From Clostridia bacterium (lineage in GTDB: Bacteria > Bacillota > Clostridia > UMGS1883 > UMGS1540), in contig JAZSIR010000019.1 of NCBI GenBank assembly GCA_045533905.1, positions 1-23,245 of the forward strand: a stretch of 23,245 nt of DNA, written 5' to 3'. Below are positions 404 through 21,436 of this stretch, one piece after another. Within the stretch, counting starts at the first letter, position 1. The number at the start of each line of letters is the position of its first letter. Under the pieces are notes generated by a model. It saw only the letters and a list, made by a program, of their open reading frames with translations, had not been told where the DNA came from and searched no databases. A program made the position numbers and the translations under genes.

Positions 404-419
404 AACAATTCCCCCACAT

Positions 420-590
420 CTATTCTTCATATTGCGCGGCAATCTGTGCATCAATCTTTGCCAAATCTTCTTCGCCGAGCACTCCCTTTTCAAGCCACCC
501 AGCGGCATTAAGAATAACTTGATAATCTGCCATTTTGCCGATTGCATTAAGAAGACCGCGCTTGATAAATTCTTTTAAGCTAAACATCAT
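420..590 (-). CDS. Small phage protein (56 aa) downstream of fibre gene
   Basis: MMFSLKEFIKRGLLNAIGKMADYQVILNAAGWLEKGVLGEEDLAKIDAQIAAQYEE; start overlaps stop of 587..2902 (ATGA). Not in supplied track. Confidence 0.75.
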   Translation of the reverse strand: MMFSLKEFIKRGLLNAIGKMADYQVILNAAGWLEKGVLGEEDLAKIDAQIAAQYEE

Positions 591-2902: not shown

Positions 2903-2946
2903 ACGCCGTCCTCCTTATTTCTTGTCTCCCGAAACTGCCAAACCAT

Positions 2947-3702: not shown

Positions 3703-3716
3703 TTCGCCTCTCCTCT

Positions 3717-4064
3717 TTATTCGTGCGTGTCCGCAGGTCTGTAGCGCGTCGCAAACCACCGCATAAATTCTCCAAAATGCGCATTGAACATCTGCATCGT
3801 GTTCTGGTATTTGGAATACTCCCCGTTTGCAAAATCTATCATCGCGCATACATACGGCACGTACAGTTTGTCATGCGGCAGCTGCACCAAAAGTTCCTTC
3901 TCGTCATCCTCCGGCTCGTAGGTTATCATTTCCTCCGGCGCCATCAAAAGCACCTCCGTCTGCACCATACCCTCGCACTCGTTGAGCCATGCCACTTTCA
4001 TCTTGTCCGAAAACGCATTTGGCTTCAGCTCATCCACCCTGTCTAAAACTTCCCGTACTGTCAT
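3717..4064 (-). CDS. Putative head-tail adaptor/connector
   Basis: 115-aa helical protein immediately after the capsid gene, RBS AAGGAG; MTVREVLDRVDELKPN start resembles adaptor proteins. Confidence 0.55.
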   Translation of the reverse strand: MTVREVLDRVDELKPNAFSDKMKVAWLNECEGMVQTEVLLMAPEEMITYEPEDDEKELLVQLPHDKLYVPYVCAMIDFANGEYSKYQNTMQMFNAHFGEFMRWFATRYRPADTHE

Positions 4065-4082
4065 TTTCTTCTCCTTTATCAG

Positions 4083-4113
4083 AAAGCCGGGCAGCGGTAC
4101 CCCGCCGCCCGGT
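4083..4113 (-). terminator. Intrinsic terminator/attenuator after capsid gene
   Basis: Minus strand ACCGGGCGGCGG-GGTA-CCGCTGCCCGGC followed by TTT. Confidence 0.6.
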
Positions 4114-4133
4114 CATTCGCCTTCCCGAGTCCG

Positions 4134-5144
4134 TTATGCTGAAACGAGCGTGTCGCCGCCCGCAATACCGCCGACAGCTGCAAAGCGCCAGTCGTTAAAG
4201 CCTGCAATAAATCTTGCATAGCCGCTCCAGACATTTGCATCGTTGCCATCGTCAATGCGGCTCTTTACCTCGAGCTTCGTTCTGTCAAGCCATACAGCGC
4301 CGCCATACTCCTTGTTGTAGTCTGTGTCAATGAGCATCCACGGCTTTGCGCCTTCGGTGATGAACTGATTGAGGTACGGCCAGATGATAACGTTCCATCT
4401 GCCAAAGAGGTAGTTGAAGCCGTTGTTTGCCGTATTCGGGTCCTTGTCCGCGCCGATAGCCGCGAATACCGCCTTCTTTAAGGTGTATTCGTTCGGAATC
4501 ACGATGGTGGTCGGTGCCACGTCCAGGATTTCGGCATTGTCGCCGCGAAAGTCCTGCATCTTCGATTCCATAGCCGCCAGCGCGTCATCGGAAAAAGCAT
4601 CTGCAAAGAGGTTCGACTGTGTGCCCTTGCCGAGCTTCGAGGGATGGTCCTTCGAGAAAAGTGCCTTCCCGTCTGCGCACTTTGCGTCAAACTTTCTGCC
4701 GCCAAAGTCCACAGAGCCCTTGCCGCTCATCGCGCCGCCTAAAAGTGCAGCCGCAAACTTCTCGCGCGTTCTGTGGTAACCTGCAATAAAGCCGGCAGGC
4801 TGCTTTTTAAGATCCATAAGCTTTGCATCGTCCACCATTTCACGGGAAATGGAGAACTGATCCTTCCAGGTCATATGCTCAAGGAACTTATCATAGCCTT
4901 CCTGCATACCGTCGTTCGGGTATTCGCCGTTTTCGCCTACGGGCTTAAAGCCGTCCATGGCCGTCATCGTTGTAAACTTTTCACCCCAGTGCGTGCTCGT
5001 GCCCATATTAAAAAGCTCGGGAATCATAGACTGCTGCTCAAATGCTTCCCCGCGTTTTTCCAGGAACATACGAATCGGTGCCTGGCTCTTGCCGAAAATA
5101 GAATCCTGAAGGCCGCTGCCTTCGGTAAATGTCATATTTGCCAT
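4134..5144 (-). CDS. Major capsid protein (Mu gpT-like, HK97 fold)
   Basis: 336 aa; FSISREMVDD, DGKALFSKDHP, PTTIVIP, GFNDWR motifs characteristic of Mu-like capsids; follows scaffold and cement-like genes. Confidence 0.85.
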   Translation of the reverse strand: MANMTFTEGSGLQDSIFGKSQAPIRMFLEKRGEAFEQQSMIPELFNMGTSTHWGEKFTTMTAMDGFKPVGENGEYPNDGMQEGYDKFLEHMTWKDQFSISREMVDDAKLMDLKKQPAGFIAGYHRTREKFAAALLGGAMSGKGSVDFGGRKFDAKCADGKALFSKDHPSKLGKGTQSNLFADAFSDDALAAMESKMQDFRGDNAEILDVAPTTIVIPNEYTLKKAVFAAIGADKDPNTANNGFNYLFGRWNVIIWPYLNQFITEGAKPWMLIDTDYNKEYGGAVWLDRTKLEVKSRIDDGNDANVWSGYARFIAGFNDWRFAAVGGIAGGDTLVSA

Positions 5145-5162
5145 ATCGTTTCACCTCTCTCC

Positions 5163-5522
5163 TTATACAAGACGGACTAAAATGCCGTCCTCCAAAATGC
5201 CGACAACCTTGTATGCCCCGCCATCGGTTTCGCTGAACCCGTTATCTGTTATCATGCCTTGTGCGCCAAAGTCCGGCGTCTCGCCTTCCGTGTTCTTGTA
5301 CTTATATACAGTCTCGCGGTTCATGTGTACAACGGGCAAAACGCCGTCCACAGCCTTTCCCGCCATCGCAATGTATTCATGCGCATCAGCGGGCGCAGAT
5401 GCTTGCAGATCGCCGCCGCTTACATGAAGCACCGTCCCCACCTCGCTTGCATTACCAGCATACGGCAAATATTCAATGCCCGGCACGTGGCCGTCATCGG
5501 TTTTGTAAATTTCAAGTACCAT
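5163..5522 (-). CDS. Putative capsid decoration/cement protein
   Basis: 119-aa beta-rich ORF between scaffold and capsid; RBS AAAGGGAGG. Confidence 0.5.
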   Translation of the reverse strand: MVLEIYKTDDGHVPGIEYLPYAGNASEVGTVLHVSGGDLQASAPADAHEYIAMAGKAVDGVLPVVHMNRETVYKYKNTEGETPDFGAQGMITDNGFSETDGGAYKVVGILEDGILVRLV

Positions 5523-5548
5523 ACTTCTTTATTCCTCCCTTTCGGTTT

Positions 5549-6439
5549 CTATTTTTTTCTGTACGCTGCATAGTGCTTTCGGATTTCCGCATCCGTCGCG
5601 CCGGGGTTAAAGGTGCGGTACTCTGCCGCAATGTCTGCCGGCACCTCTTCGGCGCCGACTCTTCCCGTCCCCGTTTTTTCAAGATGATGCTTCGAACGCT
5701 CCGCATTTAGCGCCTGCTGCCGCGCGCGCGCCTCCGCGCCTCTTGAAAGCGTGTCAAAATGCGCAATCTTATATGCATCTGTCAGCGTGTACCCGCGCTT
5801 TACGAGCGCGTAAATCTCAGGATATTTTTCATTTTCCGTGATATCGGAGAGACTTCGAACGGAAGGGTCCAGCTCGCCAATCTCGCGCACCTGCGCCGAG
5901 ATTTTGGCTTCTGCCTCCCTCTCTCTCGCCTCACGGCTGATTTTCTCCGCTTCCTCTGCCTTTCGCCGTGCCTCACGCACCTCGGGAAGGTCCTCGATAA
6001 ATTCGCGGTATTCCTCGTCAGAAACGCCGCTCATCTTCTTGAAGCTTTCCTTCTTCTCTTTCGAAAGGTTCTCGCGGTATGCCTCAAACTCTTCCTTCGA
6101 GGTAATCGGTTTTTGGGTGTACGGGTCGAGTATCCCCGTCACCTTAAAGACTTCGGAAACATAGTCCTCCGCCTCTTTTTTCGCGCGGTTTATTTTTTCT
6201 TCGGCCTCTTTCTCCGCACGCCTTCTGGCCGCGGCAAAGCCGGCGTTTTCTTCCGCGCTCTGGCGAGGCGCTTCCGCCGGCTTCTCTTCCGAAGCTTCGG
6301 CTTCTGTCCCGCCATCGGCCGCATTGTCCGGTTCGGCGATTTCCGTCTCTTTTTCGCCTTGCATATCAGCTTCCGCCATTTCAGCCTCCGCCGTATCTAT
6401 GCCAAATACTGCACCGTAATCAATCTCACTCATAGTCAT
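5549..6439 (-). CDS. Putative capsid scaffolding protein
   Basis: 296 aa, acidic N-terminus, coiled coil (AAARRRAEKEAE), basic C-terminal tip; position upstream of capsid. Confidence 0.7.
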   Translation of the reverse strand: MTMSEIDYGAVFGIDTAEAEMAEADMQGEKETEIAEPDNAADGGTEAEASEEKPAEAPRQSAEENAGFAAARRRAEKEAEEKINRAKKEAEDYVSEVFKVTGILDPYTQKPITSKEEFEAYRENLSKEKKESFKKMSGVSDEEYREFIEDLPEVREARRKAEEAEKISREAREREAEAKISAQVREIGELDPSVRSLSDITENEKYPEIYALVKRGYTLTDAYKIAHFDTLSRGAEARARQQALNAERSKHHLEKTGTGRVGAEEVPADIAAEYRTFNPGATDAEIRKHYAAYRKK

Positions 6440-6486
6440 TCTCCTTGTATTTTTACGCTTTTACTGCGAATCGTTTAGGGATTCCC

Positions 6487-6624
6487 CTATTTCTTTGTGC
6501 GAAGGTCTTCGCCCGTCTTCACGGTGCTGTTACCGCGCTTTGTCGGCACGGCACACGGTGCCTGTACCTTCTGCGCACCCGTGTTTGCAATTTTGCCGCT
6601 GTAGCCCTTGCATTTTTCGGCCAT
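6487..6624 (-). CDS. Small basic phage protein (45 aa), first gene of late operon
   Basis: GGAAGGAGG RBS; MAEKCKGYSGKIANTGAQKVQAPCAVPTKRGNSTVKTGEDLRTKK. Not in supplied track. Confidence 0.75.
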   Translation of the reverse strand: MAEKCKGYSGKIANTGAQKVQAPCAVPTKRGNSTVKTGEDLRTKK

Positions 6625-6656
6625 ACAAATCCCTCCTTCCTTCGCTTTCTGTGCCC

Positions 6657-6690
6657 ATTATACTGCATTTCTCGCGTCGCGACGCGTCAC
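6657..6690 (-). promoter_or_regulatory. Putative activator-dependent late promoter
   Basis: TATAAT at 6662-6657; perfect 14-bp palindrome CGCGTCGCGACGCG (6673-6686) overlaps the -35 region, which is non-consensus. Confidence 0.5.
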
Positions 6691-6801
6691 TTTGCATCAA
6701 AACAAGCCCCGAAAGCTGTCCTCCGGAGCAAAAATCGCCGTATTTTTTCTAAACGCGCGTTATAGGCGTATATATCCGCGCGCCTCTCGTGGGGAAAAAC
6801 G

Positions 6802-7083
6802 CTATTCTTCCAAAAGCGGCACGGGAAAGCCCTCGTAGTATCGCCGCACCGCACGGTCAAGTGTCTTTTGCGAGATGTAATGCTTTCTGCAAATCGCCAC
6901 GCCCGTGGTATCGGTCGTCACATACTCGAAAAGCGCTCCATAGTGCGGTCCTCCGTGCTCGATGCAGAGATTCAGTATCTTTCTCTGCAGCGCAGGCGGA
7001 AGGTCTCTGTATATGCGCGACACAAAATAGATATACCCCTGCCGGTTATAGCTTACGTGCGCCCCCTTCCTAAATCGAAACAT
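6802..7083 (-). CDS. Putative late transcriptional regulator (C-terminal HTH-like)
   Basis: 93 aa, RBS GGAGG; C-terminal AICRKHYISQKTLDRAVRRYY is HTH-like; last gene before the late promoter. Confidence 0.55.
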   Translation of the reverse strand: MFRFRKGAHVSYNRQGYIYFVSRIYRDLPPALQRKILNLCIEHGGPHYGALFEYVTTDTTGVAICRKHYISQKTLDRAVRRYYEGFPVPLLEE

Positions 7084-7859
7084 GGTCCCTCCTCTCTCCG
7101 CCTTCGGCTCTCTGGTTCCTTCACCCTTCGCATCTCCAGTGTTATGTAAAGTCCGCGGTTTACAAGATTTTCCGAAAAATCCGCATCTGTGAAAACAAAG
7201 TCCGGATAGCGCTCTTCAAAATAGACGGCCGCACGCTTTTCGTCAATGGCACGTACCATCTCCTCCGTTTCCTTCCGCCCTATCGCACCATCCCTTGTTA
7301 TCGGCTCGGGCTTTGTAAGATTTCGGCTCGCGTTCCACCGTTTGTAAAATTCGTGGCTTTTGGCCATGTAATGCGTAAGTGCCGCCACTCCCTCTTCTCC
7401 AAACTGCAGCCGCTTTGAATTTGCATACCCAAGCCCCCAAAGCTCCTCCAGCTCGTCTCTTGATAGTCCCCCGTTTACGATGAGGTGGTGATGCACCCTT
7501 CCGCCTTCTCCCCCAAACTCCGTGCAGCTTATGTATTTGAGCGCCGGGAGTCCCCGTTTCTTCCTCGCACGTTTCACACGCCGTAAATAGTTTTGCAGCG
7601 CCCTTCTCGCCTCCTCTGCCGTCACATGCTCCCGGTGCGTCAGATGAAGCGCTATATCCTTCTCCGTGAAATTCGTGTGCACGAGCCGTACCAGCTTCTT
7701 CTCTGCATTTCTCTGATTGATTTTCTCCTGTATCTCACTCGTCGGCTTGCACCTTGCCCTTCTCTTTCCCGAAAGTCCAAACACCGGATAGATTTCCGTG
7801 TCCACATACGCTCCGCATATGTACACGTTCTCCCGTATAAAATATTTTCCCTTTGGCAT
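7053..7859 (-). CDS. HUH-family rolling-circle replication initiator-like protein
   Basis: Motif I-like LHLT, motif II RVHHHLIV (HUH), motif III HYMAK (YxxK); start taken at MPKGKY. Confidence 0.75.
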   Translation of the reverse strand: MPKGKYFIRENVYICGAYVDTEIYPVFGLSGKRRARCKPTSEIQEKINQRNAEKKLVRLVHTNFTEKDIALHLTHREHVTAEEARRALQNYLRRVKRARKKRGLPALKYISCTEFGGEGGRVHHHLIVNGGLSRDELEELWGLGYANSKRLQFGEEGVAALTHYMAKSHEFYKRWNASRNLTKPEPITRDGAIGRKETEEMVRAIDEKRAAVYFEERYPDFVFTDADFSENLVNRGLYITLEMRRVKEPESRRRREEGPCFDLGRGRT

Positions 7860-8036
7860 GCCCTTTCTCTCTCCTTTGGTTGTTAACTTAAGATTCACTT
7901 ACAAGCCCGAAATGCAGATAGCGCGTTTTCGCCCGGGCCTTCAGCCTGCATCTGCCGAAGACCTTGCGCGTCCTTTATATGAAAGCTCTTTGTGATTGCC
8001 ACAGCTGCGTGTGGAAATCACGAAAAGCTCCCACCT

Positions 8037-8411
8037 TTACGGAAGCTCGTCCATAGTAAAGAAGTCTTCCTCTTTCGTCTCTTCCTTTGTAGCTTTGCCG
8101 CCTGCAAAATGTACCGCGTCCGTTAAAACCTCGTAGGATGTCCTTCTCTCGCCTTCACTTGTTTCGTACCCCTGCACCCGAAGGCTTCCCTCGAGAATAA
8201 GCATCTTTCCCTTCGGGAAATACCGGGCAACGTGCTCCGCAAGTCCCCGAAAGGCCACGCACGGGATAAAGTCCGCCTCGCGCACACCATCCTTTCCCGG
8301 ATGTGTTCTCTCAGAGGCAACCACAAACCGCGCCACGCTCACGCCCTCCACCGTACTGCGAAGCTCCGCATCGCGCACCATACGCCCCTGTAAAATAATT
8401 TTGTTTATCAT
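8037..8411 (-). CDS. ssb: Single-stranded DNA-binding protein
   Basis: MINKIILQGRMVRDAELR...ADFIPCVAFR...KGKMLILEGSL OB-fold signature and acidic tail ending DELP; start reassigned to 8411. Confidence 0.93.
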   Translation of the reverse strand: MINKIILQGRMVRDAELRSTVEGVSVARFVVASERTHPGKDGVREADFIPCVAFRGLAEHVARYFPKGKMLILEGSLRVQGYETSEGERRTSYEVLTDAVHFAGGKATKEETKEEDFFTMDELP

Positions 8412-8487
8412 ACCTTCTCTCCTTTGTTCGCCGCAGCACTTCAGGCGCGGCTTTTTATATGTTCTGTTAAAAAATTTTGAAAACCCC

Positions 8488-8516
8488 TTGACTAATGCGC
8501 ATAAAAGGCGTATACT
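8488..8516 (+). promoter_or_regulatory. sigma70 promoter of hicAB with palindromic operator-like site
   Basis: TTGACT-17 nt-TATACT; imperfect inverted repeat ATGCGCAT-AAA-AGGCGTAT overlapping spacer and -10. Confidence 0.75.
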
Positions 8517-8531
8517 ATAAGCAGAAGGGAA

Positions 8532-8714
8532 GTGAATTCTTTGAAGCGTCGGGAACTCATCTGTATATTGGAACGAAACGGCTGGTACTATAAGCGTAGC
8601 GGCGGCAGCCATGATATCTATACAAACGGAAAGGATATAGAGCCCATTTCCCGACAGCGCGAAATCAAAGAAAGCGTAGCGCAAGCAATCATTCGAAGGC
8701 GGGATCTGAAATAA
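8532..8714 (+). CDS. hicA: HicA-family toxin (mRNA interferase)
   Basis: KRRELICILERNGWYYKRSGGSHDIY signature with GSH histidine; directly upstream of hicB. Alternative start TTG at 8541. Confidence 0.9.
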   Translation: MNSLKRRELICILERNGWYYKRSGGSHDIYTNGKDIEPISRQREIKESVAQAIIRRRDLK

Positions 8715-8757
8715 AGTCCCAAATCCTTCGCATACTATATAAAAACAGGAGGTTACT

Positions 8758-9153
8758 ATGAAAACTGTATATCCCGTTATTCTCTCTCCGGAAGCGCAAG
8801 GCTTTTCCGTCTACATTCCGGATTTCGATGCAAACACCCAGGGCGAAACCATCGGGGAAGCTATCGCCGAGGCAAGAGATGCTATCGGTATCATGGGTAT
8901 AGATATGGAAGATGACGGCAAAGTCCTTCCCACCCCCACAAACGCCAAAGCTATCTCGGCAACGCCAGATGATATCATTTCTCTTGTGGATATCGACTTT
9001 GCGGAATACCGCCGGAAGAATGCTCTCAAAGCCGTGAAAAAGAACTGCACCATTCCGGGATGGCTAAACTATGAGGCAGAAAAAGCAAATATAAACTTTT
9101 CCGCCACACTGCAAGCGGCTTTGAAAAGAGAACTGCATATCCGAGACATATAA
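8758..9153 (+). CDS. hicB: HicB-family antitoxin
   Basis: YPVIL...VYIPDF..NTQGETIGEAIAEARDAI and C-terminal VKKNCTIPGWLN...INFSATLQAALK; RBS AGGAGG. Confidence 0.92.
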   Translation: MKTVYPVILSPEAQGFSVYIPDFDANTQGETIGEAIAEARDAIGIMGIDMEDDGKVLPTPTNAKAISATPDDIISLVDIDFAEYRRKNALKAVKKNCTIPGWLNYEAEKANINFSATLQAALKRELHIRDI

Positions 9154-9170
9154 AGAAATAACCAATCGGT

Positions 9171-9198
9171 AAAAGAGCGGCAAGGCGTCCGCTCTTTT
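9171..9198. terminator. Bidirectional terminator between hicB and convergent early operon
   Basis: AAAAGAGCGG-CAAGGCGT-CCGCTCTTTT inverted repeat with A/T tails on both sides. Confidence 0.7.
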
Positions 9199-9343
9199 AC
9201 TTTTTCTCTTCTGTGTGCGCCCTGTCCGGCTTATAAAACTTGCACGGCTTCGTACCGATTTTGCAAAGAAGACGGTTTAGCCCTCGGCACCCGTACTCCA
9301 CCGATTCACTCACATACATCTTGCAGTCCTTCTTACTTTCCAC
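9197..9343 (-). CDS. Small Cys-rich phage protein (48 aa)
   Basis: GTG start after GAAGGAGG; four Cys ending CKFYK. Confidence 0.6.
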   Translation of the reverse strand: MESKKDCKMYVSESVEYGCRGLNRLLCKIGTKPCKFYKPDRAHTEEKK

Positions 9344-9608
9344 AGCTTTCCTCCTTCTCTTCGTCCACAGGATCAAAAAGACGTAAAATCCCTTTTTCAA
9401 ACGCCGCATCTTCCATCTCCGAAAACACAAGCGAAAGCGCACGGTAAAGGTCCTTTCTGTCTTCCGGAAACATTTGCGCTCTCTGCTCGGCTGCCTTTAC
9501 CGCCATCGATAGGGCAACCGCCATAATTACCTCGCTGCCCATGCCGTACTGCCGCGCGGCTGCATACCCGTTTTTGTACGCCTGTTCTGCAATGTCGTGT
9601 TCGTTCAT
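9333..9608 (-). CDS. Hypothetical phage protein
   Basis: 91 aa, RBS AAGGAGG; EQAYKNGY-type N-terminus common in phage early genes. Confidence 0.7.
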   Translation of the reverse strand: MNEHDIAEQAYKNGYAAARQYGMGSEVIMAVALSMAVKAAEQRAQMFPEDRKDLYRALSLVFSEMEDAAFEKGILRLFDPVDEEKEESCGK

Positions 9609-9687
9609 TTTGCACCCCTCCTTATTCGTTATAAAAATATTTAAAAAGAATGCCTTTTTACTTTAAGATGAATAACTCGCCTTCGCC

Positions 9688-9978
9688 CTATTCGATATCA
9701 ATATCGAGCGGTATACCTCGCCTACGACTTAATTCAATTTCGCCCGTCTGTAATTCCCTTAATCTCTCCGCGCATTGCTCGTCCGTTTCGTATCCGGAGC
9801 AGAAAACCATATTGTCCGGCGCTCTCCATCTGTCAACTAAATCAATAATAAAATACAGTACCGTGCGCTTCGCATTAAAAGGTTTCGTGCAAATGATGTA
9901 TCTTTCGTCTCTTGCCTTGACCGTGTAAGGCCTTTTGTCTGTCGGTATATACACTTTGTCGCCTATTTTTACTTTCAT
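9688..9978 (-). CDS. Hypothetical phage protein
   Basis: 96 aa, RBS GAGGGG, co-oriented with early operon. Confidence 0.7.
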   Translation of the reverse strand: MKVKIGDKVYIPTDKRPYTVKARDERYIICTKPFNAKRTVLYFIIDLVDRWRAPDNMVFCSGYETDEQCAERLRELQTGEIELSRRRGIPLDIDIE

Positions 9979-9997
9979 TTCCCCTCATCTTCTCTTC

Positions 9998-10264
9998 TCA
10001 AATCGTAATATGTATATCCGCCTCATCCCTAAGCGCCTGCTCCAAATCCGAAAGCTTTACATACCCACGGCTTACGGAATCGGCAAGGTACTCTATCGCT
10101 TCGTAAACACGTTTTAACCTTTTTACGCCGTACCCTTCCGTGTCTCGCATGGCAGAAAGGAAAAGCACAGTCGCATATCGGATGGCATCGTCCGCGGCTT
10201 CCTTCTTGATACGCCGTATGTCTGATTCCCGCATCTGCCGGCACGGGTTTTTCTTTTTCGTCAT
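9998..10264 (-). CDS. Hypothetical phage protein
   Basis: 88 aa; GYGVKRLKRVY motif; start overlaps upstream stop (ATGA). Confidence 0.75.
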   Translation of the reverse strand: MTKKKNPCRQMRESDIRRIKKEAADDAIRYATVLFLSAMRDTEGYGVKRLKRVYEAIEYLADSVSRGYVKLSDLEQALRDEADIHITI

Positions 10265-10754
10265 TCAGCCTCGCCCTTTCGCTTTGCCGTTAATTTTTTA
10301 AGTAGCTTTTCAAACTCCCTCTTGTATATGTCGCGCTCCGCCCGAACGAAAAGAAGTTCTTCCTTTGCCTCTTCAGGTATCCTCTCCACGCACGGCGCCT
10401 CCGGCTCTTCCGAAAGGCCGAGGCTCACCTTTATCGCCGCGTCCACTGCCCGCATCTCTTTTTCCGTACAGGAACCCATGAACCGCCCGAACTGCCCTTT
10501 GGAAATGCTGTGGATCTGCTCGCAAAGTGCCGTGCTCGGTCTTTCGCAGCTCATAATCTGCACGTGCGTCGGCAGCTCCTTTTTCTCTTTGGTTGTCATA
10601 TAGACTACTTCCACCACTTCGCTGTATCGGTTTCCGGTATCATTGGAAACGATAATGCCGGGTCTACCCCCCTCTGCACGCCAAAGGGTCCATCCGCCTC
10701 CGCTTCCACAAAATAAATGTCTCCGCGTAAAACTTCCCGCCATACTTCTGTCAT
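10261..10754 (-). pseudogene. PemK/MazF-family protein split by a 1-nt frameshift in a G6 run
   Basis: ATG 10754 gives ...LRGDIYFV...GVQRG; another frame gives GRPGIIVSND...LPTHV...ALCEQI...VDAAIKVSLGL; adding one G at 10667-10672 joins them. Confidence 0.8.
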
Positions 10755-10900
10755 CTTTCTTCTCCCTTCCTCTTTTGTAACTCCTCAAGCTTTGCCGCCG
10801 CATCGCGCATCACAATCCCTTCGCGTGTGTATGTACCGGCGGCATCCTCCATGCTTTTTGATTCTCTTCTGAGAAAATCGATAATTTCAAAAACGCCCAT
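10751..10900 (-). CDS. Small hypothetical phage protein (49 aa)
   Basis: MGVFEIIDFLRRESKSMEDAAGTYTREGIVMRDAAAKLEELQKRKGEER; stop overlaps the PemK start (ATGA). Not in supplied track. Confidence 0.65.
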   Translation of the reverse strand: MGVFEIIDFLRRESKSMEDAAGTYTREGIVMRDAAAKLEELQKRKGEER

Positions 10901-10902
10901 CT

Positions 10903-11547
10903 TCACACTCCGTATTCTGCCGCCTCGCGTAATATCCCGTCGGCACCCTGTATGATACTCTCTGCAAATACGCCCACAATCGCCTCGTAATTTGCAAGGC
11001 TCTCTTTAGAAAGAAGCGTAATGCATCTTGCATAATCACGCATAAGCGATACTCGTCGTCGCAAGCTCCTTTCTGTATCGCTTTCCTCATTGGAAAGCTC
11101 TCTTTTAATTCGCTGCTCCTCCTCTTCCCCTTCAAACGCAAGCGTTTGTGGGGTCCCCGTTTTTACTGCGGGCTCCTCCTTTTTTTCTGCGGGCTCCTTC
11201 TTTTTCGCCTCGCCGCGAAGCTTATATCTGGATATCCCGTACTGCACCTGCGCTGTGTCCCATCCGATTCTCTCCGCAATCGCCGCGCAGGTCATCCCCT
11301 CCATAAGAAGGCTTCGAACGGTTTGCTTTAGCTCTTCATCCCACACAAGTCTCGGGGCGCCGCTTTTTTGGTACGTCGCAGCTTTCTTCTTTTTCTTTTC
11401 TCCCGGAACGCCGGAAATAAGTCCCGCATTCTGCAGCACGAACAAAATGTCCTCCTTACTGCAGCATGCAAGGTCTGCCAGAATTTCTATCTGCGCATTT
11501 TTGTCCTTCGCCTCTTTGTACATCTGTATGATCTCGTATGTTGTCAT
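10903..11547 (-). CDS. Phage HTH DNA-binding protein containing the ~105-bp element in frame
   Basis: WDEELKQTVRSLLMEGMTCAAIAERIGWDTAQVQY is HTH-like; segment GTPQTLAFEGEEEEQR...RRR is encoded by the repeat. Confidence 0.7.
   Translation of the reverse strand: MTTYEIIQMYKEAKDKNAQIEILADLACCSKEDILFVLQNAGLISGVPGEKKKKKAATYQKSGAPRLVWDEELKQTVRSLLMEGMTCAAIAERIGWDTAQVQYGISRYKLRGEAKKKEPAEKKEEPAVKTGTPQTLAFEGEEEEQRIKRELSNEESDTERSLRRRVSLMRDYARCITLLSKESLANYEAIVGVFAESIIQGADGILREAAEYGV
11054..11158 (-). repeat. Structured ~105-bp element, copy 1
   Basis: About 90% identical to 12145-12248 by manual alignment; two internal hairpins. Confidence 0.9.
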
Positions 11548-11568
11548 CTCGTCGCCATATGCTCCTTT

Positions 11569-11847
11569 CTATACTGTTTCCTCTTTAGCTTCCATGTCAG
11601 AAAGCGCCACAATCATTTCGCATTCGTTCACATAGAACCATTCCTTTGCCGTCCGGATCACCTCATCCGCAACTTCTTTTATAATCTTGGAAAGCGTAGG
11701 ACTAAAGGAGTCGAATTCAGCCTCTTCATACATATTTTCGAGAAGCTGCGTCCGCACAAACTCCATGCCGTTTACAAAAGCACGATTCTGTTCACCTAAA
11801 TCCTCTTTTTTGTATGTACCGTCTTCCACAAGCTTTACCATATCCAT
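11569..11847 (-). CDS. Hypothetical acidic phage protein
   Basis: 92 aa, RBS GGGAG, in early operon. Confidence 0.7.
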   Translation of the reverse strand: MDMVKLVEDGTYKKEDLGEQNRAFVNGMEFVRTQLLENMYEEAEFDSFSPTLSKIIKEVADEVIRTAKEWFYVNECEMIVALSDMEAKEETV

Positions 11848-11851
11848 CGTT

Positions 11852-12121
11852 TCATTCTCCCTTCATTACCGGCACCCGGAGCCGCTCATGCGGCCAAAGG
11901 CTCGCCGTTTCTTTGTTATTGAGTTCTTTTACTTCGTGTATCCATTTGTCCGCTCTGCCGTAGCCGTATTCCTCCCATATGCTCCAGAGGGTGTCCCCCT
12001 CCCGAACTACTACTTCTCTGGTGGTATACTCCACGTCCGCCGTACGGACGAAGGAGGTAATCATACATACCACTATAAAAACCGCCAGTATCCATAAAAA
12101 CCGTTTTTCTGCTTTGTTCAT
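11852..12121 (-). CDS. Membrane-anchored LysM protein (YneA-like)
   Basis: N-terminal TM helix FLWILAVFIVVCMI followed by LysM motif VVREGDTLWSI...ELNN...L.P.ERLRVP. Confidence 0.8.
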   Translation of the reverse strand: MNKAEKRFLWILAVFIVVCMITSFVRTADVEYTTREVVVREGDTLWSIWEEYGYGRADKWIHEVKELNNKETASLWPHERLRVPVMKGE

Positions 12122-12127
12122 TTTCCC

Positions 12128-12412
12128 CTATGCCTCCGCCGCCACGTCGTCGCAAGCTCCTTTGTATATCGCTTTCCTTCTCGGAAAGCTCTCTGTTTTT
12201 CGCTGCTCCTCCTCTTCCCCTTCAAACGCAAGCGTTTGTGGGGGCCCCATCATAGTTTTTAAAATATCGGCACAGGCCATCGCCTCTGCAAATTCTCTTT
12301 CGAATCCCCGGGCCGCTCTTTCCAGCCCATAGTTCTCGCTCGCTTCAAACGCACGGTCGAGCACGAGCGAAAGCGCCATTCGAATTGCTTTTTCTTTGGT
12401 CATCTCCCTCAT
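12128..12412 (-). CDS. Hypothetical phage protein whose C-terminal third is encoded by the ~105-bp element
   Basis: 94 aa; GPPQTLAFEGEEEEQR...GACDD derives from repeat copy 2. Confidence 0.65.
   Translation of the reverse strand: MREMTKEKAIRMALSLVLDRAFEASENYGLERAARGFEREFAEAMACADILKTMMGPPQTLAFEGEEEEQRKTESFPRRKAIYKGACDDVAAEA
12145..12248 (-). repeat. Structured ~104-bp element, copy 2
   Basis: Direct repeat of 11054-11158 in the same orientation; flanks unrelated. Confidence 0.9.
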
Positions 12413-12561
12413 CCTTTCGTTTGTTTTTCTTCCTGTACGGCCTTCGCAAGCATTTCACACATGCTCTCCAGTGCCGCCACACGTCGCTGGAGCGGCAGCG
12501 TCAACACAAACGAAGTCGCGCCGGCAACCAATAGTATCAAAAGCCAAAACATCGCGCGCAC
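12409..12561 (-). CDS. Small membrane protein (50 aa)
   Basis: AAAGGAGG RBS, GTG start; MRAMFWLLILLVAGATSFVLTLPLQRRVAALESMCEMLAKAVQEEKQTKG; stop overlaps next ATG. Confidence 0.65.
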   Translation of the reverse strand: MRAMFWLLILLVAGATSFVLTLPLQRRVAALESMCEMLAKAVQEEKQTKG

Positions 12562-12580
12562 GTCGTCACAACCTCCTTTC

Positions 12581-12886
12581 TTATGCCGGCAGCGTTTTTT
12601 CAGAATCGCCGAACAGCTTTTTGTATTTCTTGTACCGCACTTCCATGTCCGCTACATCAAGCCCCCAAACCTCATACGCGATTTTGGTATTCACGGCATT
12701 GCGCGTACAGCAGAAGTATTTGCCCTCCCGCATCTTTTCAAATACAGGCCGCTTCAAGTTGGTAATCGTCCCGGCAGATACATTTCCAAACAGCTGTCGA
12801 ATATCCTCGCTCGTAAGCTCCGGCGTGCTGTAGTAAATCCGAAGCGCCGTTTCCAGGTTCTGCACCTTAAACATTCTTTGCTTCAT
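12581..12886 (-). CDS. Putative DNA-binding phage protein
   Basis: 101 aa; ELTSEDIRQLFGNVSAGTITNLK is HTH-like; coupled to the upstream Cro-like gene. Confidence 0.65.
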   Translation of the reverse strand: MKQRMFKVQNLETALRIYYSTPELTSEDIRQLFGNVSAGTITNLKRPVFEKMREGKYFCCTRNAVNTKIAYEVWGLDVADMEVRYKKYKKLFGDSEKTLPA

Positions 12887-13089
12887 GTCTTTTGTTCCCC
12901 CTCCCCTTCAAATAGTTCATCAATCGTACACCCTAACAGCTGCGCCAAAAATGGGAGCTTGTCCGCCCTCGGCATTGCCTTTCCGCTCTCCCATTTTCCT
13001 ACCGTGCTGTTGTCTACACATAGCCTCTCGGCAATTTCCTTCTGCGTCCGCCCCGCCATCCGCCTGCGCTCTGCAATCATGTTCTTCAT
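12883..13089 (-). CDS. XRE/Cro-family HTH regulator
   Basis: RTQKEIAERLCVDNSTVGKWESGKAMP...LGCTIDELF. Confidence 0.9.
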   Translation of the reverse strand: MKNMIAERRRMAGRTQKEIAERLCVDNSTVGKWESGKAMPRADKLPFLAQLLGCTIDELFEGEGEQKT

Positions 13090-13093
13090 CTTT

Positions 13094-13306
13094 CTATCCT
13101 TTCAGCCTGTTCTCTTCCTCAATAATCCGCTCCACCGGTAAACCAAACACTTTGGAAAGCTTCTCGGCCACAGAAAGATTCATATCAATCTGCCTGCTCC
13201 CGGTTTCAATCATGCAGTAATAATTCGGTCGCATGCCCATCTGTTCTGCAACCTCCTGTTGCGTAAGTCCTTTTTCTTCCCGAAGTTTCTTTAAGTATTG
13301 TCTCAT
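13094..13306 (-). CDS. XRE/Cro-family HTH regulator
   Basis: MRQYLKKLREEKGLTQQEVAEQMGMRPNYYCMIETG; RBS GGAGGTG; start reassigned to 13306. Confidence 0.9.
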   Translation of the reverse strand: MRQYLKKLREEKGLTQQEVAEQMGMRPNYYCMIETGSRQIDMNLSVAEKLSKVFGLPVERIIEEENRLKG

Positions 13307-13392
13307 CCTTTCACCTCCTGCCATATTGCCACTAAAAGCGCCCCGTAAACGATGACCTCTGCGGCGTGTAATACAATTTCAATGATTTCCAT
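13303..13392 (-). CDS. 29-aa hydrophobic peptide
   Basis: GGAG RBS; MEIIEIVLHAAEVIVYGALLVAIWQEVKG; stop overlaps the Cro-like start (ATGA). Confidence 0.55.
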   Translation of the reverse strand: MEIIEIVLHAAEVIVYGALLVAIWQEVKG

Positions 13393-13436
13393 TTTGCTTC
13401 TCCTTTTCTCTTTATTGGCTCGTCCCGCACTCACTC

Positions 13437-13465
13437 TTGACATATACCACAAAATATGGTATAAT
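13437..13465 (+). promoter_or_regulatory. Consensus sigma70 promoter with extended -10
   Basis: TTGACA-17 nt-TATAAT, preceded by TG. Confidence 0.85.
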
Positions 13466-13513
13466 AAAAGTGTAATTGCAATTACAGGTAGTATATATCA
13501 AGGAGGTGATACA

Positions 13514-13645
13514 TTGCCCAACAAAAAACAAACCAGTGCAAAGGTTGCCAAAACTGCATCTAAAATCCTGACCGATAACAGATACAGCAAGGCAAGCAAG
13601 AGCGTCGCAGGGAGCGCGCTATCACAAACGAAAAAAACTAAATAG
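13514..13645 (+). CDS. 43-aa basic Ser/Lys/Ala-rich peptide (moron)
   Basis: AGGAGGTGA RBS and TTG start; MPNKKQTSAKVAKTASKILTDNRYSKASKSVAGSALSQTKKTK; own promoter and terminator. Confidence 0.75.
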   Translation: MPNKKQTSAKVAKTASKILTDNRYSKASKSVAGSALSQTKKTK

Positions 13646-13877
13646 TATTTCCAGCTGAGCGAAGCGAGACGTCGTTTCGCTCTTTCACTTTTCTGAAGTC
13701 TATTTCGCACTTCTCCAAAATGAGCAAAAACTCATCCGCCGAAAGTTTTCTTTCACCGCAAAGCGCGCGCCGCAACAATTCGTATTTAATGCCTGTAAGC
13801 TTTGCCGCCTTGTATACGGTGATTCCCTTCTCTTCCAGTTCACGCTTTAGCTTGTTTACCACCGAAATCGCGACCAC
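13638..13877 (-). CDS. XRE/Cro-like HTH protein
   Basis: LEEKGITVYKAAKLTGIKYELLRRALCGERKLSADEF; RBS AGGAG, GTG start. Confidence 0.8.
   Translation of the reverse strand: MVAISVVNKLKRELEEKGITVYKAAKLTGIKYELLRRALCGERKLSADEFLLILEKCEIDFRKVKERNDVSLRSAGNTI
13657..13692 (+). terminator. Terminator of the 43-aa peptide gene
   Basis: GAGCGAAGCGA-GACG-TCGTTTCGCTC followed by TTTCACTTTTT. Confidence 0.6.
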
Positions 13878-13891
13878 CTCCTAAATATATC

Positions 13892-13920
13892 TTGACAATG
13901 TAAAAGAAAAATGCTATCCT
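13892..13920 (+). promoter_or_regulatory. sigma70-like promoter pointing antisense into the 38-aa peptide gene
   Basis: TTGACA-17 nt-TATCCT with TG extension; no convincing plus-strand CDS downstream. Confidence 0.55.
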
Positions 13921-13948
13921 ATAAGCAAGGGGATTTCTCCCCCCTGCT

Positions 13949-14065
13949 TCACTCATTCAATCGGTTAATCAATTCGATTATCGCTTTAATGAGTTGGATA
14001 AGAGCCGTAACAAGTGCAACTTTTAGGGTGGTTGCTTGTTGCGGTTTTTTCTTTTTCCTTTTCAT
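13949..14065 (-). CDS. 38-aa peptide with polybasic N-terminus and hydrophobic helix
   Basis: GAAAGGAG RBS; MKRKKKKPQQATTLKVALVTALIQLIKAIIELINRLNE; hairpin 13923-13949 after stop. Not in supplied track. Confidence 0.7.
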   Translation of the reverse strand: MKRKKKKPQQATTLKVALVTALIQLIKAIIELINRLNE

Positions 14066-14080
14066 TGCGCCTCTCCTTTC

Positions 14081-14192
14081 TGTCATTCTGTGAGTATATA
14101 TTATCACAGTTAGAAAGATTTGTCAAGAAATATTTTTCTTTTTGTGAGATTTTTATTTTTCTATTGACCCGCCTCACGCTCTGTGATAATAT
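14081..14192. promoter_or_regulatory. Lysis/lysogeny switch: divergent promoters and operator-like repeats
   Basis: Leftward TTGACA(14126-14121)-17-TAATAT; rightward TTGACC(14164)-17-TAATAT; repeated TGTGA/TCAC half-sites, best TCACGCTCTGTGA at 14174-14186. Confidence 0.7.
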
Positions 14193-14217
14193 GTGAAATA
14201 TGAGAGGTGAAACTAAA

Positions 14218-14874
14218 ATGTTTGCTAAGCGCTTAAAAGAATTAAGAAAAAGCAAAGGCTTAACGCAAATAGCTTTTGCTAATATCTTCTGTATATCCAA
14301 CGGTGCAGTTGGTAACTGGGAAATCGGCACACGCCAACCCGACCACGAAATGTTGACTCGTATTGCCGACTATTTCCATGTTTCAACAGATTATCTCCTT
14401 GGTCGCACGAATGATGCATCACGTCCTTCCCCCGACTTCTCCCCCGGTATTACCGAAGACTACACCTCTTTCCCCGTCATCGGTGACGTGGCCGCAGGCT
14501 ATAACCACATCGCGACAGAGGATTGGGAGGGCGAAAAAATAGACGTCCCGAATTCATATCTGAAGGGACGCCCGAAGGAAGAGTTTTTTGTATTAAAGGT
14601 AAAGGGAGACAGCATGTACCCCGCATATCAAGACGGCGACCACGTTCTGGTCCTTCGCCAGGCCACGCTCGATTACAGTGGGCAGGTCGGCGTCATTGTA
14701 TATAATGATGATAACGCCACCCTTAAAAAAGTAGAATTCAAGCAAGGCGAGGATTGGCTCCGCCTTGTGCCTATCAACCCCACGCACCCGTCCATACGCG
14801 TAGAGAACGAAGACCTCGAGCATTGCCACGTTCTCGGCGTGCCGCGCCTTCTTCTCCGCGAAATACAGGACTAA
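14218..14874 (+). CDS. CI-like repressor (XRE HTH + S24 peptidase)
   Basis: MFAKRLKELRKSKGLTQ HTH; PVIGDVAAG cleavage site; VKGDSMYP catalytic Ser; ATLKK catalytic Lys; RBS GAGGTG. Confidence 0.95.
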   Translation: MFAKRLKELRKSKGLTQIAFANIFCISNGAVGNWEIGTRQPDHEMLTRIADYFHVSTDYLLGRTNDASRPSPDFSPGITEDYTSFPVIGDVAAGYNHIATEDWEGEKIDVPNSYLKGRPKEEFFVLKVKGDSMYPAYQDGDHVLVLRQATLDYSGQVGVIVYNDDNATLKKVEFKQGEDWLRLVPINPTHPSIRVENEDLEHCHVLGVPRLLLREIQD

Positions 14875-14960
14875 TGCCGCACGTGGGAAAGGTCCCGCCA
14901 TCCGTTTGTAAGAAACTTTCTAAGTCTGCATTCTTTTACTTATAAAATTGGAGGCTTTTT

Positions 14961-15908
14961 GTGATTTCCTATCTTTTCTTCGTTGTTGTTCTCCCCGCTT
15001 GCTTATTTTATATCGTTGACTCTTTTCGGGAGAAAGCAAAAAAACTTTCCGAATGTGTCTCTTATATCGATAAATTCTCCTTGGCACATTCTGTTTTAGA
15101 GGAAAAATATGCCCTTCTGAAAAAGATGAAGAGCATCGTAAAGGATGACGTGGTCGTAGGGCGAGACGGGCTCCCGCGCCTTCTTTCCCCGGAGCACGAC
15201 TGGGGCTTTCCTTTCACCGTATATAAAACGCCCACGGGTCGCAAGCTGCACATCCTGTACGGATGCAACGGCGCACACGAAGCGCGGCATCTGTATACCC
15301 TGAAGGCAGACGAACTTTCCGAAGAAAATTTCTGCGGCCGTTGCAGGCATCTCCTCCCGGAAAAAATTCTCTCCTTTCTTATGCTGTACCGGGAATGCGA
15401 ACTTCACTTAGGAAGGATGGATTTTGCCTGCCGCTTCCTTGAAAAAAATCTTTTGCAATGCGACAAAGGCATTATGCGTCTCTGGTGCTACTGTAAAATC
15501 AAAAAGTACAAAAAAGAGCTCCTCCGCATGCGCGATGAAAAAGACGCGATGCAAAGTAAGCTCTCTATCATGTTTCGCAAAGGGTATCTTGGGCTTGAAG
15601 GCGCCGAATTTTACAGAGTGTGCTTCTCCCACACCTCGCCTGCCGGTACCAATCCGGAGGCTCCGTTTATTGCCGCGCTCCGTCCGGTTCCAAAGGTAGG
15701 CGAACCCGTCGGCACTTCCTATCACATCCTCCGCCTCGGCTTTCCAAAAGGCGGCTTCGTGGTTTACGACAATAACACTCCCCTCATAAGAGGAAAAGAA
15801 CATAAACTTTTGGGATTTGAAAAAGAAGAGAAGTATACACACTATGTGTATCTGGCAGAAGACAGTTTTAATCTTCTCCCCCCTTCTTCTACATACCCGG
15901 AAAAATAA
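14961..15908 (+). CDS. Membrane-anchored hypothetical protein with His/Cys motif
   Basis: GGAGG RBS, GTG start; N-terminal TM helix; VYKTPTGRKLH...C...CGRC. Confidence 0.65.
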   Translation: MISYLFFVVVLPACLFYIVDSFREKAKKLSECVSYIDKFSLAHSVLEEKYALLKKMKSIVKDDVVVGRDGLPRLLSPEHDWGFPFTVYKTPTGRKLHILYGCNGAHEARHLYTLKADELSEENFCGRCRHLLPEKILSFLMLYRECELHLGRMDFACRFLEKNLLQCDKGIMRLWCYCKIKKYKKELLRMRDEKDAMQSKLSIMFRKGYLGLEGAEFYRVCFSHTSPAGTNPEAPFIAALRPVPKVGEPVGTSYHILRLGFPKGGFVVYDNNTPLIRGKEHKLLGFEKEEKYTHYVYLAEDSFNLLPPSSTYPEK

Positions 15909-15930
15909 AACTGCAAAAGGAGGCTGCGCC

Positions 15931-17061
15931 ATGCCCATCACTAAGATAGACGGCAAAAAGAAATACGGCAAACAAGGATACCGCGTCCGCGTAAACTTCA
16001 CCGATGCCTACGGCAAGGCGCGACAGATAGAGCGCACCGTATATGGCATTGAAGAAGCTAAAGAGGCCGAACGCCAGCTCTCCTTGTCCTGCAAAGAAAC
16101 CACGCCTTCCGCACTTACGCTGGAGGCGCTTTCTTGCCGCTATTTCTCCTCGCAAAAGCACGAAGTGCGCGAGAGCACCCTTGCAAAGAACCGCTGCATT
16201 TTTGAAACGCACATCCTCCCGGCCTTGGGCGATACCCGCATTGATAAACTCAGCGTGAAAATTCTGGAGGACTGGAAAACTGCCATAAACGAAAAGGGGC
16301 TTTCCTTCTCTATGCGCAAGAACATCTATTCTGTGCTCCGCGCGATGCTAAATTATGCCGTGCGCATAGACCTTCTGCCGAAGAACCCCCTGCATCGCGT
16401 CGGCAATTTCAAGGATGCATATGAGAAAAAAGAAACGATACAGTATTATACGAAAGAGCAGTTTGTAGCTTTTATATCTGCCGCCTACGCCGATGCGCAG
16501 GAGACAGGCGATATGCGATACTACACCTTCTTCTCTACACTTTTCTATACAGGTGCACGCAAAGGCGAAGCAAATGCCCTAGACTGGTCTGATTTAGACG
16601 GCGATATTTTGCACATCGGCAAAAACGTGGTGCAAAAGCTGCAGGGCGATGACAGAATCACCCCTCCTAAAAACAAGGCATCCGACCGCACGCTTCAGGT
16701 TCCTGCTCCTCTCCTTTATGTTTTTGAGGAACAGAAGGCCTGGCAAAAGAAAAACGGTATATACAGCCGTCATTCTAAAATTTGCGGTGGATTGTCCTTC
16801 CTTCGTGATACGAGTATTGAAAAGAAAAATAAACAATATGCCGAAGCTGCCGGCCTTCCTAAAATCCGCATACACGACTTCCGGCATTCTCACGCCTCTC
16901 TTCTGGCAAACGAAGGCATCAACATACAAGAAATCGCACGTCGCCTCGGCCACTCCAAAATCGAGATGACGTGGAATACATATTCCCATCTGTACCCAAG
17001 AGAAGAGGAAAGAGCCGTCAAGCTCTTAAACCAAATTCCTCTTCCTAAAAAAGGAGAATAG
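15931..17061 (+). CDS. int: Tyrosine recombinase / phage integrase
   Basis: YTGARKGE (Arg), HDFRHSHAS (HxxR), RLGH and TYSHLY (Tyr); AAGGAGG RBS before MPITK. Confidence 0.96.
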   Translation: MPITKIDGKKKYGKQGYRVRVNFTDAYGKARQIERTVYGIEEAKEAERQLSLSCKETTPSALTLEALSCRYFSSQKHEVRESTLAKNRCIFETHILPALGDTRIDKLSVKILEDWKTAINEKGLSFSMRKNIYSVLRAMLNYAVRIDLLPKNPLHRVGNFKDAYEKKETIQYYTKEQFVAFISAAYADAQETGDMRYYTFFSTLFYTGARKGEANALDWSDLDGDILHIGKNVVQKLQGDDRITPPKNKASDRTLQVPAPLLYVFEEQKAWQKKNGIYSRHSKICGGLSFLRDTSIEKKNKQYAEAAGLPKIRIHDFRHSHASLLANEGINIQEIARRLGHSKIEMTWNTYSHLYPREEERAVKLLNQIPLPKKGE

Positions 17062-17078
17062 ATATGGAAAACAATATG

Positions 17079-17100
17079 TTTTCGGGGATTTTTCGGGGAT
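17079..17100 (+). repeat. Tandem 11-bp repeat TTTTCGGGGAT x2, probable integrase arm-type sites
   Basis: Exact tandem duplication between integrase stop and ssrA 3' end; inverted partial copy CCCCGAAAA at 17114-17122. Confidence 0.6.
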
Positions 17101-17109
17101 TAAAAATAA

Positions 17110-17133
17110 AAAACCCCGAAAAATCGAGGTTTT
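17110..17133. terminator. Terminator between integrase and ssrA
   Basis: AAAACCCCGA-AAAA-TCGAGGTTTT imperfect hairpin with A/T tails. Confidence 0.6.
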
Positions 17134-17142
17134 CTACCAATT

Positions 17143-17489
17143 TGGTGGAAGCGGCGGGAGTTGAACCCGCGTCCGAAAACATATTCACAAGAGCCTCTCC
17201 GAGCGCAGTTTGTGATTAAAATTCCCGCCTTTGCAAGTTCACAAACAACCTTACAAATTTGGTAGCTTCATTATGCATGCTTGCGGCAAAGCTTACGCAA
17301 GTCACGTTCACTGCTAAGTCACGCCCTGTCCCGCGCCGCAGTCCTCGCGGGCAAGACGGCAGCTTTTAATTAAGCTGCAAAAGCTAACTTATTATTGTCG
17401 CTTAATATTTAAGTTTGGGCTTTTTAAGAGGCGCCCGCCTCTGCTCGCTGCTCCGGCTGCAACATCCCCGTCGAAACCGTTACGCCCCC
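17143..17489 (-). ncRNA. ssrA: tmRNA; tag peptide (A)DNNKLAFAA*
   Basis: 5' GGGGGCGTAACGGTTTCGAC; 3' GACGCGGGTTCAACTCCCGCCGCTTCCACCA; G3:U acceptor pair; tag reading frame 17399-17370. Confidence 0.96.
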
Positions 17490-21142: not shown

Positions 21143-21219
21143 GGAGGCATAGCTCAGCTGGTTAGAGCGCTCGCTTCACATGCGAGAGGTCGTAGGTTCA
21201 AGTCCTACTGTCTCTACCA
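21143..21219 (+). tRNA. tRNA-Val (anticodon CAC)
   Basis: GGAGGCA/TGTCTCT acceptor, AGCTCAGCTGGTTAGAGC D-arm, CTCGC-TTCACAT-GCGAG anticodon arm, GTTCAAG T-loop, encoded CCA. Confidence 0.97.
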
Positions 21220-21266: not shown

Positions 21267-21436
21267 TGCGGTTTTTCGAGGTTTTAAGTTCAAAATTTTT
21301 CGAGAACAAATTTGTTACTGTCAATAGTATTTTTGAAAGATTTGAACCCTCACCCTAAATTCAATATCAATTTCAAAGCACAGAGTAAATTTTCTACTCT
21401 GTGTTTTTTTATTTGAATTTAAGGAGGAAAACTTTA

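Follow-up and report, generated by a model that had tools for sequence, protein, structure and literature searches.

A mobile repeat of about 105 nucleotides with a covarying rod of G·A tandems in gut Clostridia

The window analysed in this study, a stretch of 23,245 nucleotides that represents contig C20 of the host genome G000, harbours two copies of an element that belongs to a dispersed non-coding repeat family of gut Clostridia and is not phage-specific. Comparison of empty with filled sites has shown a mobile unit of about 105 nt that has a fixed 3' end and inserts without duplication and with loss of a few target bases, and the alignment of many copies indicates that the rod-like shape of the unit is selected. 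On balance, we favour the view that the element is a non-autonomous mobile repeat whose GA-rich strand, folded as single-stranded DNA (ssDNA), would be recognised and copied by an enzyme provided in trans, most likely one of the HUH type (TnpA or RAYT). The family is apparently undescribed.

The two copies and their prophage

Copy 1 is located on the minus strand at 11053..11158 (covariance-model match at 11053-11129, 64.4 bits) and consists of a hairpin and a rod of GA tandems. It starts with a GGGG-N-CCCC end (11150..11158) and continues with hairpin 1, which has a c-TT-g loop and is variable in the family (11127..11153), and with the covarying rod (11053..11124; the 5' arm starts at 11124), which encloses a central 7-bp stem with a 5-nt loop (11080..11098) and has the GACG 3' end at 11054. 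Copy 2, also on the minus strand, is found at 12145..12248 (match at 12144-12219, 55.8 bits) and is 91% identical to copy 1 over 105 nt. The sequence and the pairing of each GA with another GA, both described in the first-pass annotation, are present at both copies. A pattern of five symmetric GA/GA tandems around a central stem matches only these two copies in the window and none of 200 Markov-1 resamples, a result that, with a pattern derived from the element itself, excludes background only. The element had further been supposed to fold on one strand only; this holds for the GA-tandem part but not for hairpin 1 and the central stem, which fold on both strands (plus-strand folding z = -3.6 and -1.9 for RNA, -4.2 and -2.3 for DNA). 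Similarly, two 9-nt spacers are indeed present in the window copies but are not open loops in the family alignment, where they represent, in degenerate form, a 2-bp stem, an extra GA/GA tandem and a second 2-bp stem. Judged by this alignment, the window copies are degenerate in the middle of the rod.

Positions 1-17162 of the window are the integrase end of a prophage that resides in the 3' end of the tmRNA (17143-17489) and whose integrase is encoded at 15817-17061. Its 20-bp attachment core, derived from the tmRNA 3' end, is located at 17143..17162 (minus strand); a second copy of the core at G000:C3:98418 is directly abutted by a host-side copy of the element. The end of contig C3 overlaps the start of the window by 94 nt, and window 1-17162 and G000:C3:98418-119622 together make up one tmRNA prophage of about 38 kb that is divided between two overlapping contigs. 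This is a tailed phage, and it encodes an inovirus-like HUH Rep, a HicB (8758-9153) and a MazF-like ORF (10261-10803).

Both copies lie in frame in a minus-strand early gene cluster, in ORFs without known function. Copy 1 interrupts an ORF of 214 aa (10903..11547, minus strand) in a variable linker, and copy 2 encodes the C-terminal part of an ORF of 94 aa (12128..12412, minus strand), near the 3' end of that ORF. The two copies are likely passengers of the prophage, which tolerates them because the reading frame is maintained. Two ribosome-binding regions resemble the 3' tail of the element, one at 12559..12584 on the minus strand (19/21 nt at 12559-12581, 77% over 26 nt), a possible remnant, and that of a neighbouring phage gene at 11548-11573 (81% over 26 nt), possibly a decayed remnant. 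Homologues of the 214-aa ORF mostly have no insert, and one (P0007) carries an independent in-frame copy at another site of the gene; relatives of the ORF were not found in viral contigs. Note that two groups of homologues (P0007, P0008, P0010 and P0011; P0006 and P0015) share short peptide inserts in the same linker. These inserts look like translations of other clostridial repeats, and the gene may be an insertion hot spot.

Structure and conservation of the rod

The predicted family fold comprises five 2x2 GA/GA tandems and a 3x3 GNA/GNA loop between stems of 1-5 bp. Covariation, by which the first-pass annotation had proposed to judge its claim of a strand-asymmetric structure under selection, is strong and supports this claim. 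In alignment A1, which holds 109 of 120 short distinct rods with longer rods excluded, 88% of the cells are paired and 340 both-side changes are present, values that are reached by none of 500 shuffles and compare with 30-51% paired cells in slid controls; compensatory changes affect 14 of the 20 pairs. The inner tandems, which were outside the pattern used for fishing, are GA/GA in 82/109 and 78/109 rods. Because this pattern had fixed the outer GA positions of A1, these positions were retested on 100 distinct copies found by the covariance model, in an alignment fitted to this model (R1). Here, 96% of the cells are paired, with 571 both-side changes, and 19 of the 20 pairs change on both sides, although the relatedness of the copies means that pair and loop counts overstate independence. 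An alternative hairpin in the 3' arm lacks covariation, as its score was equalled or exceeded by 478 of 500 shuffles.

The GA pairs had been expected to be invariant. This is true of tandem 2, which is GA/GA in 97 of the 100 model-found rods, with its outer G-C closer kept in 99; the other tandems vary or turn Watson-Crick. Tandem 3 is Watson-Crick in 59 rods and GA/GA in 32, and the GA/GA form is present in 43 rods for tandem 4 and in 28 for tandem 5. A bulged pyrimidine is present in all 100 (T in 97, C in 3). These results indicate that the shape of the rod is selected, and tandem 2 together with the bulged pyrimidine looks like a recognition core. The conserved core of the rod as a whole is the penultimate GA/GA tandem with its G-C closers, the bulged T and the 3' GACG. 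Upstream of the rod, a GGG-n-CCC word is present in 157 of 188 cases.

Mobility, tRNA ends and distribution

A related-phage contig of 3.7 kb (run X2) lacks both window copies, and copy 2 is absent from the related phages of runs X1, X4 and X9. At the site of copy 1 the event is less clean, as 119 bases are replaced by 50 different ones in the X2 allele. A third site (9340..9369, minus strand) is empty in the window and occupied by a sister element in related phages (L002, X1 and X4) and in genome G004. There, the 3' arm of the sister element contains the word AAAGGAG, and 11 nt further on the element ends directly at the ATG of the next gene. Outside the window, a phage site is represented by 32 empty and 8 filled loci (net gain of 103 nt, 8 target bases replaced), a topoisomerase III gene has gained 105 nt in frame, and an NlpC/P60 gene of an integrative and conjugative element (ICE) has lost 3-7 bases to an insertion located at the 3' foot of a hairpin. 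The empty alleles come from relatives that are 70-90% identical, so that the junctions are uncertain by a few bases. Neither a target duplication nor terminal inverted repeats of the basic unit were found in the three empty/filled pairs; a second empty-site scan yielded the filled contig only. Insertion in frame into the window ORF, the topoisomerase III gene and the NlpC/P60 gene is a trait known from Rickettsia palindromic elements (RPEs). At unrelated sites the unit has the fixed GACG 3' end and a near-constant length, the left flanks are variable and have no fixed target word, and the GGGG-N-CCCC 5' end is preceded by a variable dinucleotide (AT, AC or TC).

A sharper target preference is evident for a subtype in which tandem 3 is Watson-Crick (WC). 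Here, no spacer separates the GACG end from the complement of a tRNA's CCA end: under a strict rule, a base-exact junction with a CCA end on the opposite strand was seen for 29 of 58 distinct flanks, and about 10 further flanks resemble truncated tRNA or tmRNA ends. The WC-subtype flanks gave 26 aragorn calls in 12 amino-acid classes. Among all 315 rods, 20 are located at tRNA ends, and 19 of these belong to the WC subtype. In G000, 3 of the 41 tRNA and tmRNA ends carry a rod, including the tmRNA end that was displaced by the prophage; in a genome of the same genus (L190), tmRNA and rod are still joined. The rods at L585 and L544 immediately precede a 5S rRNA gene and a tRNA gene and share the strand of these genes, which reverses the usual arrangement at tRNAs.

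Related copies elsewhere in the host genome were detected by BLAST and HMM searches. An nhmmer search gave 17 matches at E<0.05 in this genome, with a seed in which copies from G000 itself and a few rows other than the element were present, and two of the 17 are probably one locus at a contig overlap. Covariance model R1, built from 109 rods and stricter than nhmmer, found 8 copies in G000, matches in 36 of 61 related genomes (from 0 to 59 or more copies in each, the lowest and the highest count coming from one genus) and 4 positive genomes among 151 of a phylum-wide sample. Pattern scans gave at least 122 genome loci, nearly all from gut Clostridia such as Oscillospiraceae and a few from contigs labelled Bacteroidales, as well as 83 viral loci and, for one subtype, 72 metagenome loci. 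The copies are mostly outside prophages; their neighbours are housekeeping operons (pgk-tpi, rpsJ-rplC, rplQ, groEL), genes of conjugative elements and phage genes. The family is thus multi-copy, mostly extragenic, clustered and patchy between species, as are REP and REPIN repeats. Other palindromic repeats frequently lie next to rods, and rods are also captured within composites of 270-500 nt. Such composites, genome-specific, with sharp ends that start with GGGG and with at least one rod, were seen in G029 (L271-L276) and in G043 and G051 (L262-L267, L183), and possibly are MITEs that captured a rod. Head-to-tail tandem or partial rod copies were noted at L008, L064, L051, L179 and L393, and a remnant similar to the 3' arm is present just upstream of 18 of 188 rods; these could reflect self-targeting or multimeric intermediates.

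A search of Rfam 15, proposed with the first-pass annotation, revealed no known family: no covariance model matched the window (E<=1), 8 homologous loci (E<=1) or 12 loci (gathering score). A blastn search of a phage collection gave a single match, by chance, and the exact inner-stem pattern did not match in viral contigs. No description of the element was found in the literature searched, although the supplements of PMC8040213 and PMC5737381 may contain the motif as a candidate without a name; the files covered from PMC8040213 gave no element match, and neither 3'-end word of the element occurred among the papers listed.

Possible mechanisms and relation to known systems

According to the mechanism that we propose, the GA-rich strand would fold during brief single-stranded states of the DNA. 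A nuclease acting in trans, by analogy with TnpA and RAYT (PMC6006769, PMC5581495) most plausibly one of the HUH type, would read the fixed tandem and the bulged T, cut at the GACG end and join the unit beside another hairpin. Copies would survive where they are neutral, that is between genes, after tRNAs and in frame in linkers. We infer that the fixed GA/GA tandem and the bulged T act as a signal for protein recognition and strand identity and that nearby ssDNA hairpins are chosen as targets; the assignment of the enzyme to the HUH type is a tentative one. A more far-reaching version, in which the repeats are a new class of ssDNA elements with strand identity provided by sheared G·A pairs, an unrecognised nuclease family and a subfamily that has come to target tRNA and tmRNA genes precisely at their CCA end, which is neither duplicated nor replaced, appears doubtful to us.

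The search for the enzyme was negative. Of 176 ORFs called in the flanks, 142 were scanned, and no transposase was among these; in the 61 relatives no rod is near any of 49 Y1 loci or 30 DUF559 loci. Neither Rep (7/36 rod-bearing vs 6/25 rod-free relatives) nor Y1 (21/36 vs 15/25), DUF559 (14/36 vs 12/25) or reverse transcriptase (RT; 13/36 vs 13/25) tracks the presence of rods in these relatives. In five high-copy genomes no IS1182 was found and no IS91 Y2 enzyme (no control matched either); GIY-YIG matches were confined to ORFs of >600 aa, probably UvrC, and in one case an IS110 is preceded, at a distance of about 420 nt, by a weak rod inside a composite repeat, an arrangement judged coincidental. 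Because a repeat-flanked gene may be unassembled in these genomes, which are mostly MAGs, and the sensitivity of the Pfam models may hide a RAYT, the absence of an enzyme is weak evidence.

It fits nevertheless with an explanation that we regard as unlikely, in which the repeat has no dedicated enzyme and spreads at ssDNA hairpins, either through template switching or through recombination driven by microhomology, its structure being kept as a protein-binding site, tRNA trailer or ribosome-binding site for host or phage. The short target loss and the likeness to the 3' arm at the junctions would be in agreement with this, as would a start codon within 0-3 nt of the right flank in 14 of 48 viral loci and the filling of identical tmRNA and tRNA sites in several genomes of the genus; the CGTC-type REPs, too, are without a known transposase in the part of PMC3733652 consulted. 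However, the fixed 3' end and near-constant length at unrelated sites, the base-exact joining to 12 tRNA-end classes and the expansions to at least 59 copies suggest enzymatic specificity.

Tandem GA pairs are stable in DNA when flanked as Py-GA-Pu, as are c-TT-g loops, and tandem GA is stable in RNA too. The types of loops lead us to believe with fair confidence that the rod forms in ssDNA rather than in RNA: c-GNA-g triloops on 3-bp stems occur 50 times on the GA strand of 188 rods and 3 times on the other strand, c-TT-g loops 57 and 13 times, GNRA loops 19 and 6 times and UUCG not at all, counts that are no more than indicative in view of the relatedness of the copies and of the purine-rich GA strand. 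According to PMC13037366, the stability of GNA and GNNA mini-hairpins in DNA is far above that of the RNA counterpart quoted (Tm of 76.5 vs 39 °C). We therefore consider it quite improbable that the element is a structured RNA of the GA-rich strand, be it a cis-regulator, a stability element or a small retro-mobile RNA. Covariation does not separate RNA from DNA (PMC5737381, as far as covered), and the excess of G-T over A-C on the GA strand (157:73) and its co-orientation with genes in viral loci (38:8) would be compatible with an RNA. In chromosomes, however, both orientations occur (35:22 and 6:5; like the viral ratio, these counts rest on heuristic gene calls and are again no more than indicative), and the GA strand is antisense to every abutting tRNA and there is the non-transcribed strand. 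The own genome has no RT match, and five RTs from high-copy genomes look like RTs of phage diversity-generating retroelements (DGR), with no rod nearby.

The prophage Rep (7053-7898) is a genuine HUH protein (PF23343, E 3e-11) with an adjacent SSB, and it had been suggested that the element might be its substrate. A nicking substrate or single-strand origin for this Rep is very improbable: although the two most similar copies are located in the window prophage and a sister prophage and a rod and a Rep gene are about 100 nt apart in 1 of 80 viral loci, no Rep match exists in 29 of 36 rod-bearing relatives, none of 17 Rep loci has a rod, a related phage contig lacks both copies and the positions differ among sister phages. 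An origin would be expected at a constant position in phages that carry a PF23343 Rep, and such constancy was not found. The better candidate for an origin is the spacer between SSB and Rep (7899-8036), which is nearly identical in the sister prophage of G004 while the neighbouring genes diverge; by sequence, it is likely the real replication origin region. Ends of tRNA genes are common targets of integrases, and a site of the attC type, recombined as ssDNA by a tyrosine recombinase, would share with the rod the strand-specific hairpin and its extrahelical pyrimidine, yet we give this hardly any weight, given flanks of unrelated housekeeping, ICE and phage genes, copies inside genes, a gained or lost unit that is the 105 nt itself and, on inspection, no duplicated tRNA end at the far side; gene-cassette arrays near an integron integrase were not found among flanking genes and multi-rod loci.

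The mobile repeat that we favour resembles several known systems, each of which is considered here from the parts of the cited sources that were covered. Like REP, BIME and REPIN repeats with RAYT (PMC5581495, PMC6006769), it is a short, dispersed, palindromic non-coding unit with a bulged hairpin, occurs in clusters, head-to-head pairs and genome-specific subfamilies and is likely mobilised in trans. It differs by the absence of a GTAG/GTGG guide 0-2 nt 5' of the stem, by its unit of 105 nt, which comprises two hairpins, as many as five GA/GA tandems and a 3x3 purine loop, by the absence of an element-flanked RAYT gene in 49 loci and by its tRNA-end subfamily. With CGTC REPs and Rickettsia palindromic elements (PMC3733652, PMC10969869) it shares the CGTC end on the pyrimidine strand, in-frame insertion into genes and the lack of a known dedicated transposase. 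CGTC REPs have perfect stems of 8-9 bp with loops of 4-5 nt and are mostly from Alphaproteobacteria, Clostridia being unmentioned in the covered part of PMC3733652, whereas the CGTC of our element lies within a mismatched rod of 77 nt next to a second hairpin. Strand-specific imperfect DNA hairpins, the lack of target duplication and a fixed 3' end with a free downstream flank are reminiscent of IS200/IS605 ends and their non-autonomous derivatives, but the element has no fixed upstream target tetranucleotide, loses a few target bases and has no tnpA or tnpB between or beside its units. IS200/IS605 elements favour the lagging-strand template (PMC6006769); 52 of 102 element loci have positive GC skew, and no strand bias was detected in this set, in which the skew is weak and the flanks are short.

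The element is small, non-coding and multi-copy like MITEs, and rods occur in the GGGG-ended composites of two genomes; unlike MITEs with terminal inverted repeats (TIRs), the basic unit has neither such repeats nor a target duplication. As for the candidate ssDNA motifs DUF1874, GEBRO, ARRPOF and STAXI and for integron attC (PMC5737381, PMC2864571), covariation is present and an action as ssDNA is conceivable, but our element is itself mobile and has no tie to replication origins or cassette arrays. In summary of these comparisons, it works like repeats of the REP/RPE type yet has no GTAG and no short CGTC stem, no RAYT was seen with it, and it lacks the defining features of TIR MITEs, IS605 derivatives and attC.

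For gut Clostridia, descriptions of REP-like and RPE-like repeats are poor, and the movement of CGTC/RPE-type repeats is an open question in the covered part of PMC3733652. The present family supplies a defined substrate (fixed GA/GA tandem, bulged T and GACG end), natural pairs of empty and filled sites and, with the tRNA CCA end, a sharp target rule, which makes it feasible to search for the mobilising enzyme and to assay it. In addition, the family would represent a natural, covariation-backed DNA structure built on sheared G·A tandems. For genome annotation, the family explains spurious peptide inserts and ORFs in Oscillospiraceae and likely two false tRNA calls: at L370:844-938 and L373:792-887, aragorn annotates the rod complement as a tRNA, which makes this complement a likely source of false tRNA annotations. 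Finally, the window contains a low-GC segment (21401-22667) after tRNA-Val (21143-21219) with two HTH_36 replication-initiator-like ORFs and, associated with it, a 38-nt direct repeat at 22811 and 23066; this segment is probably another integrated element.
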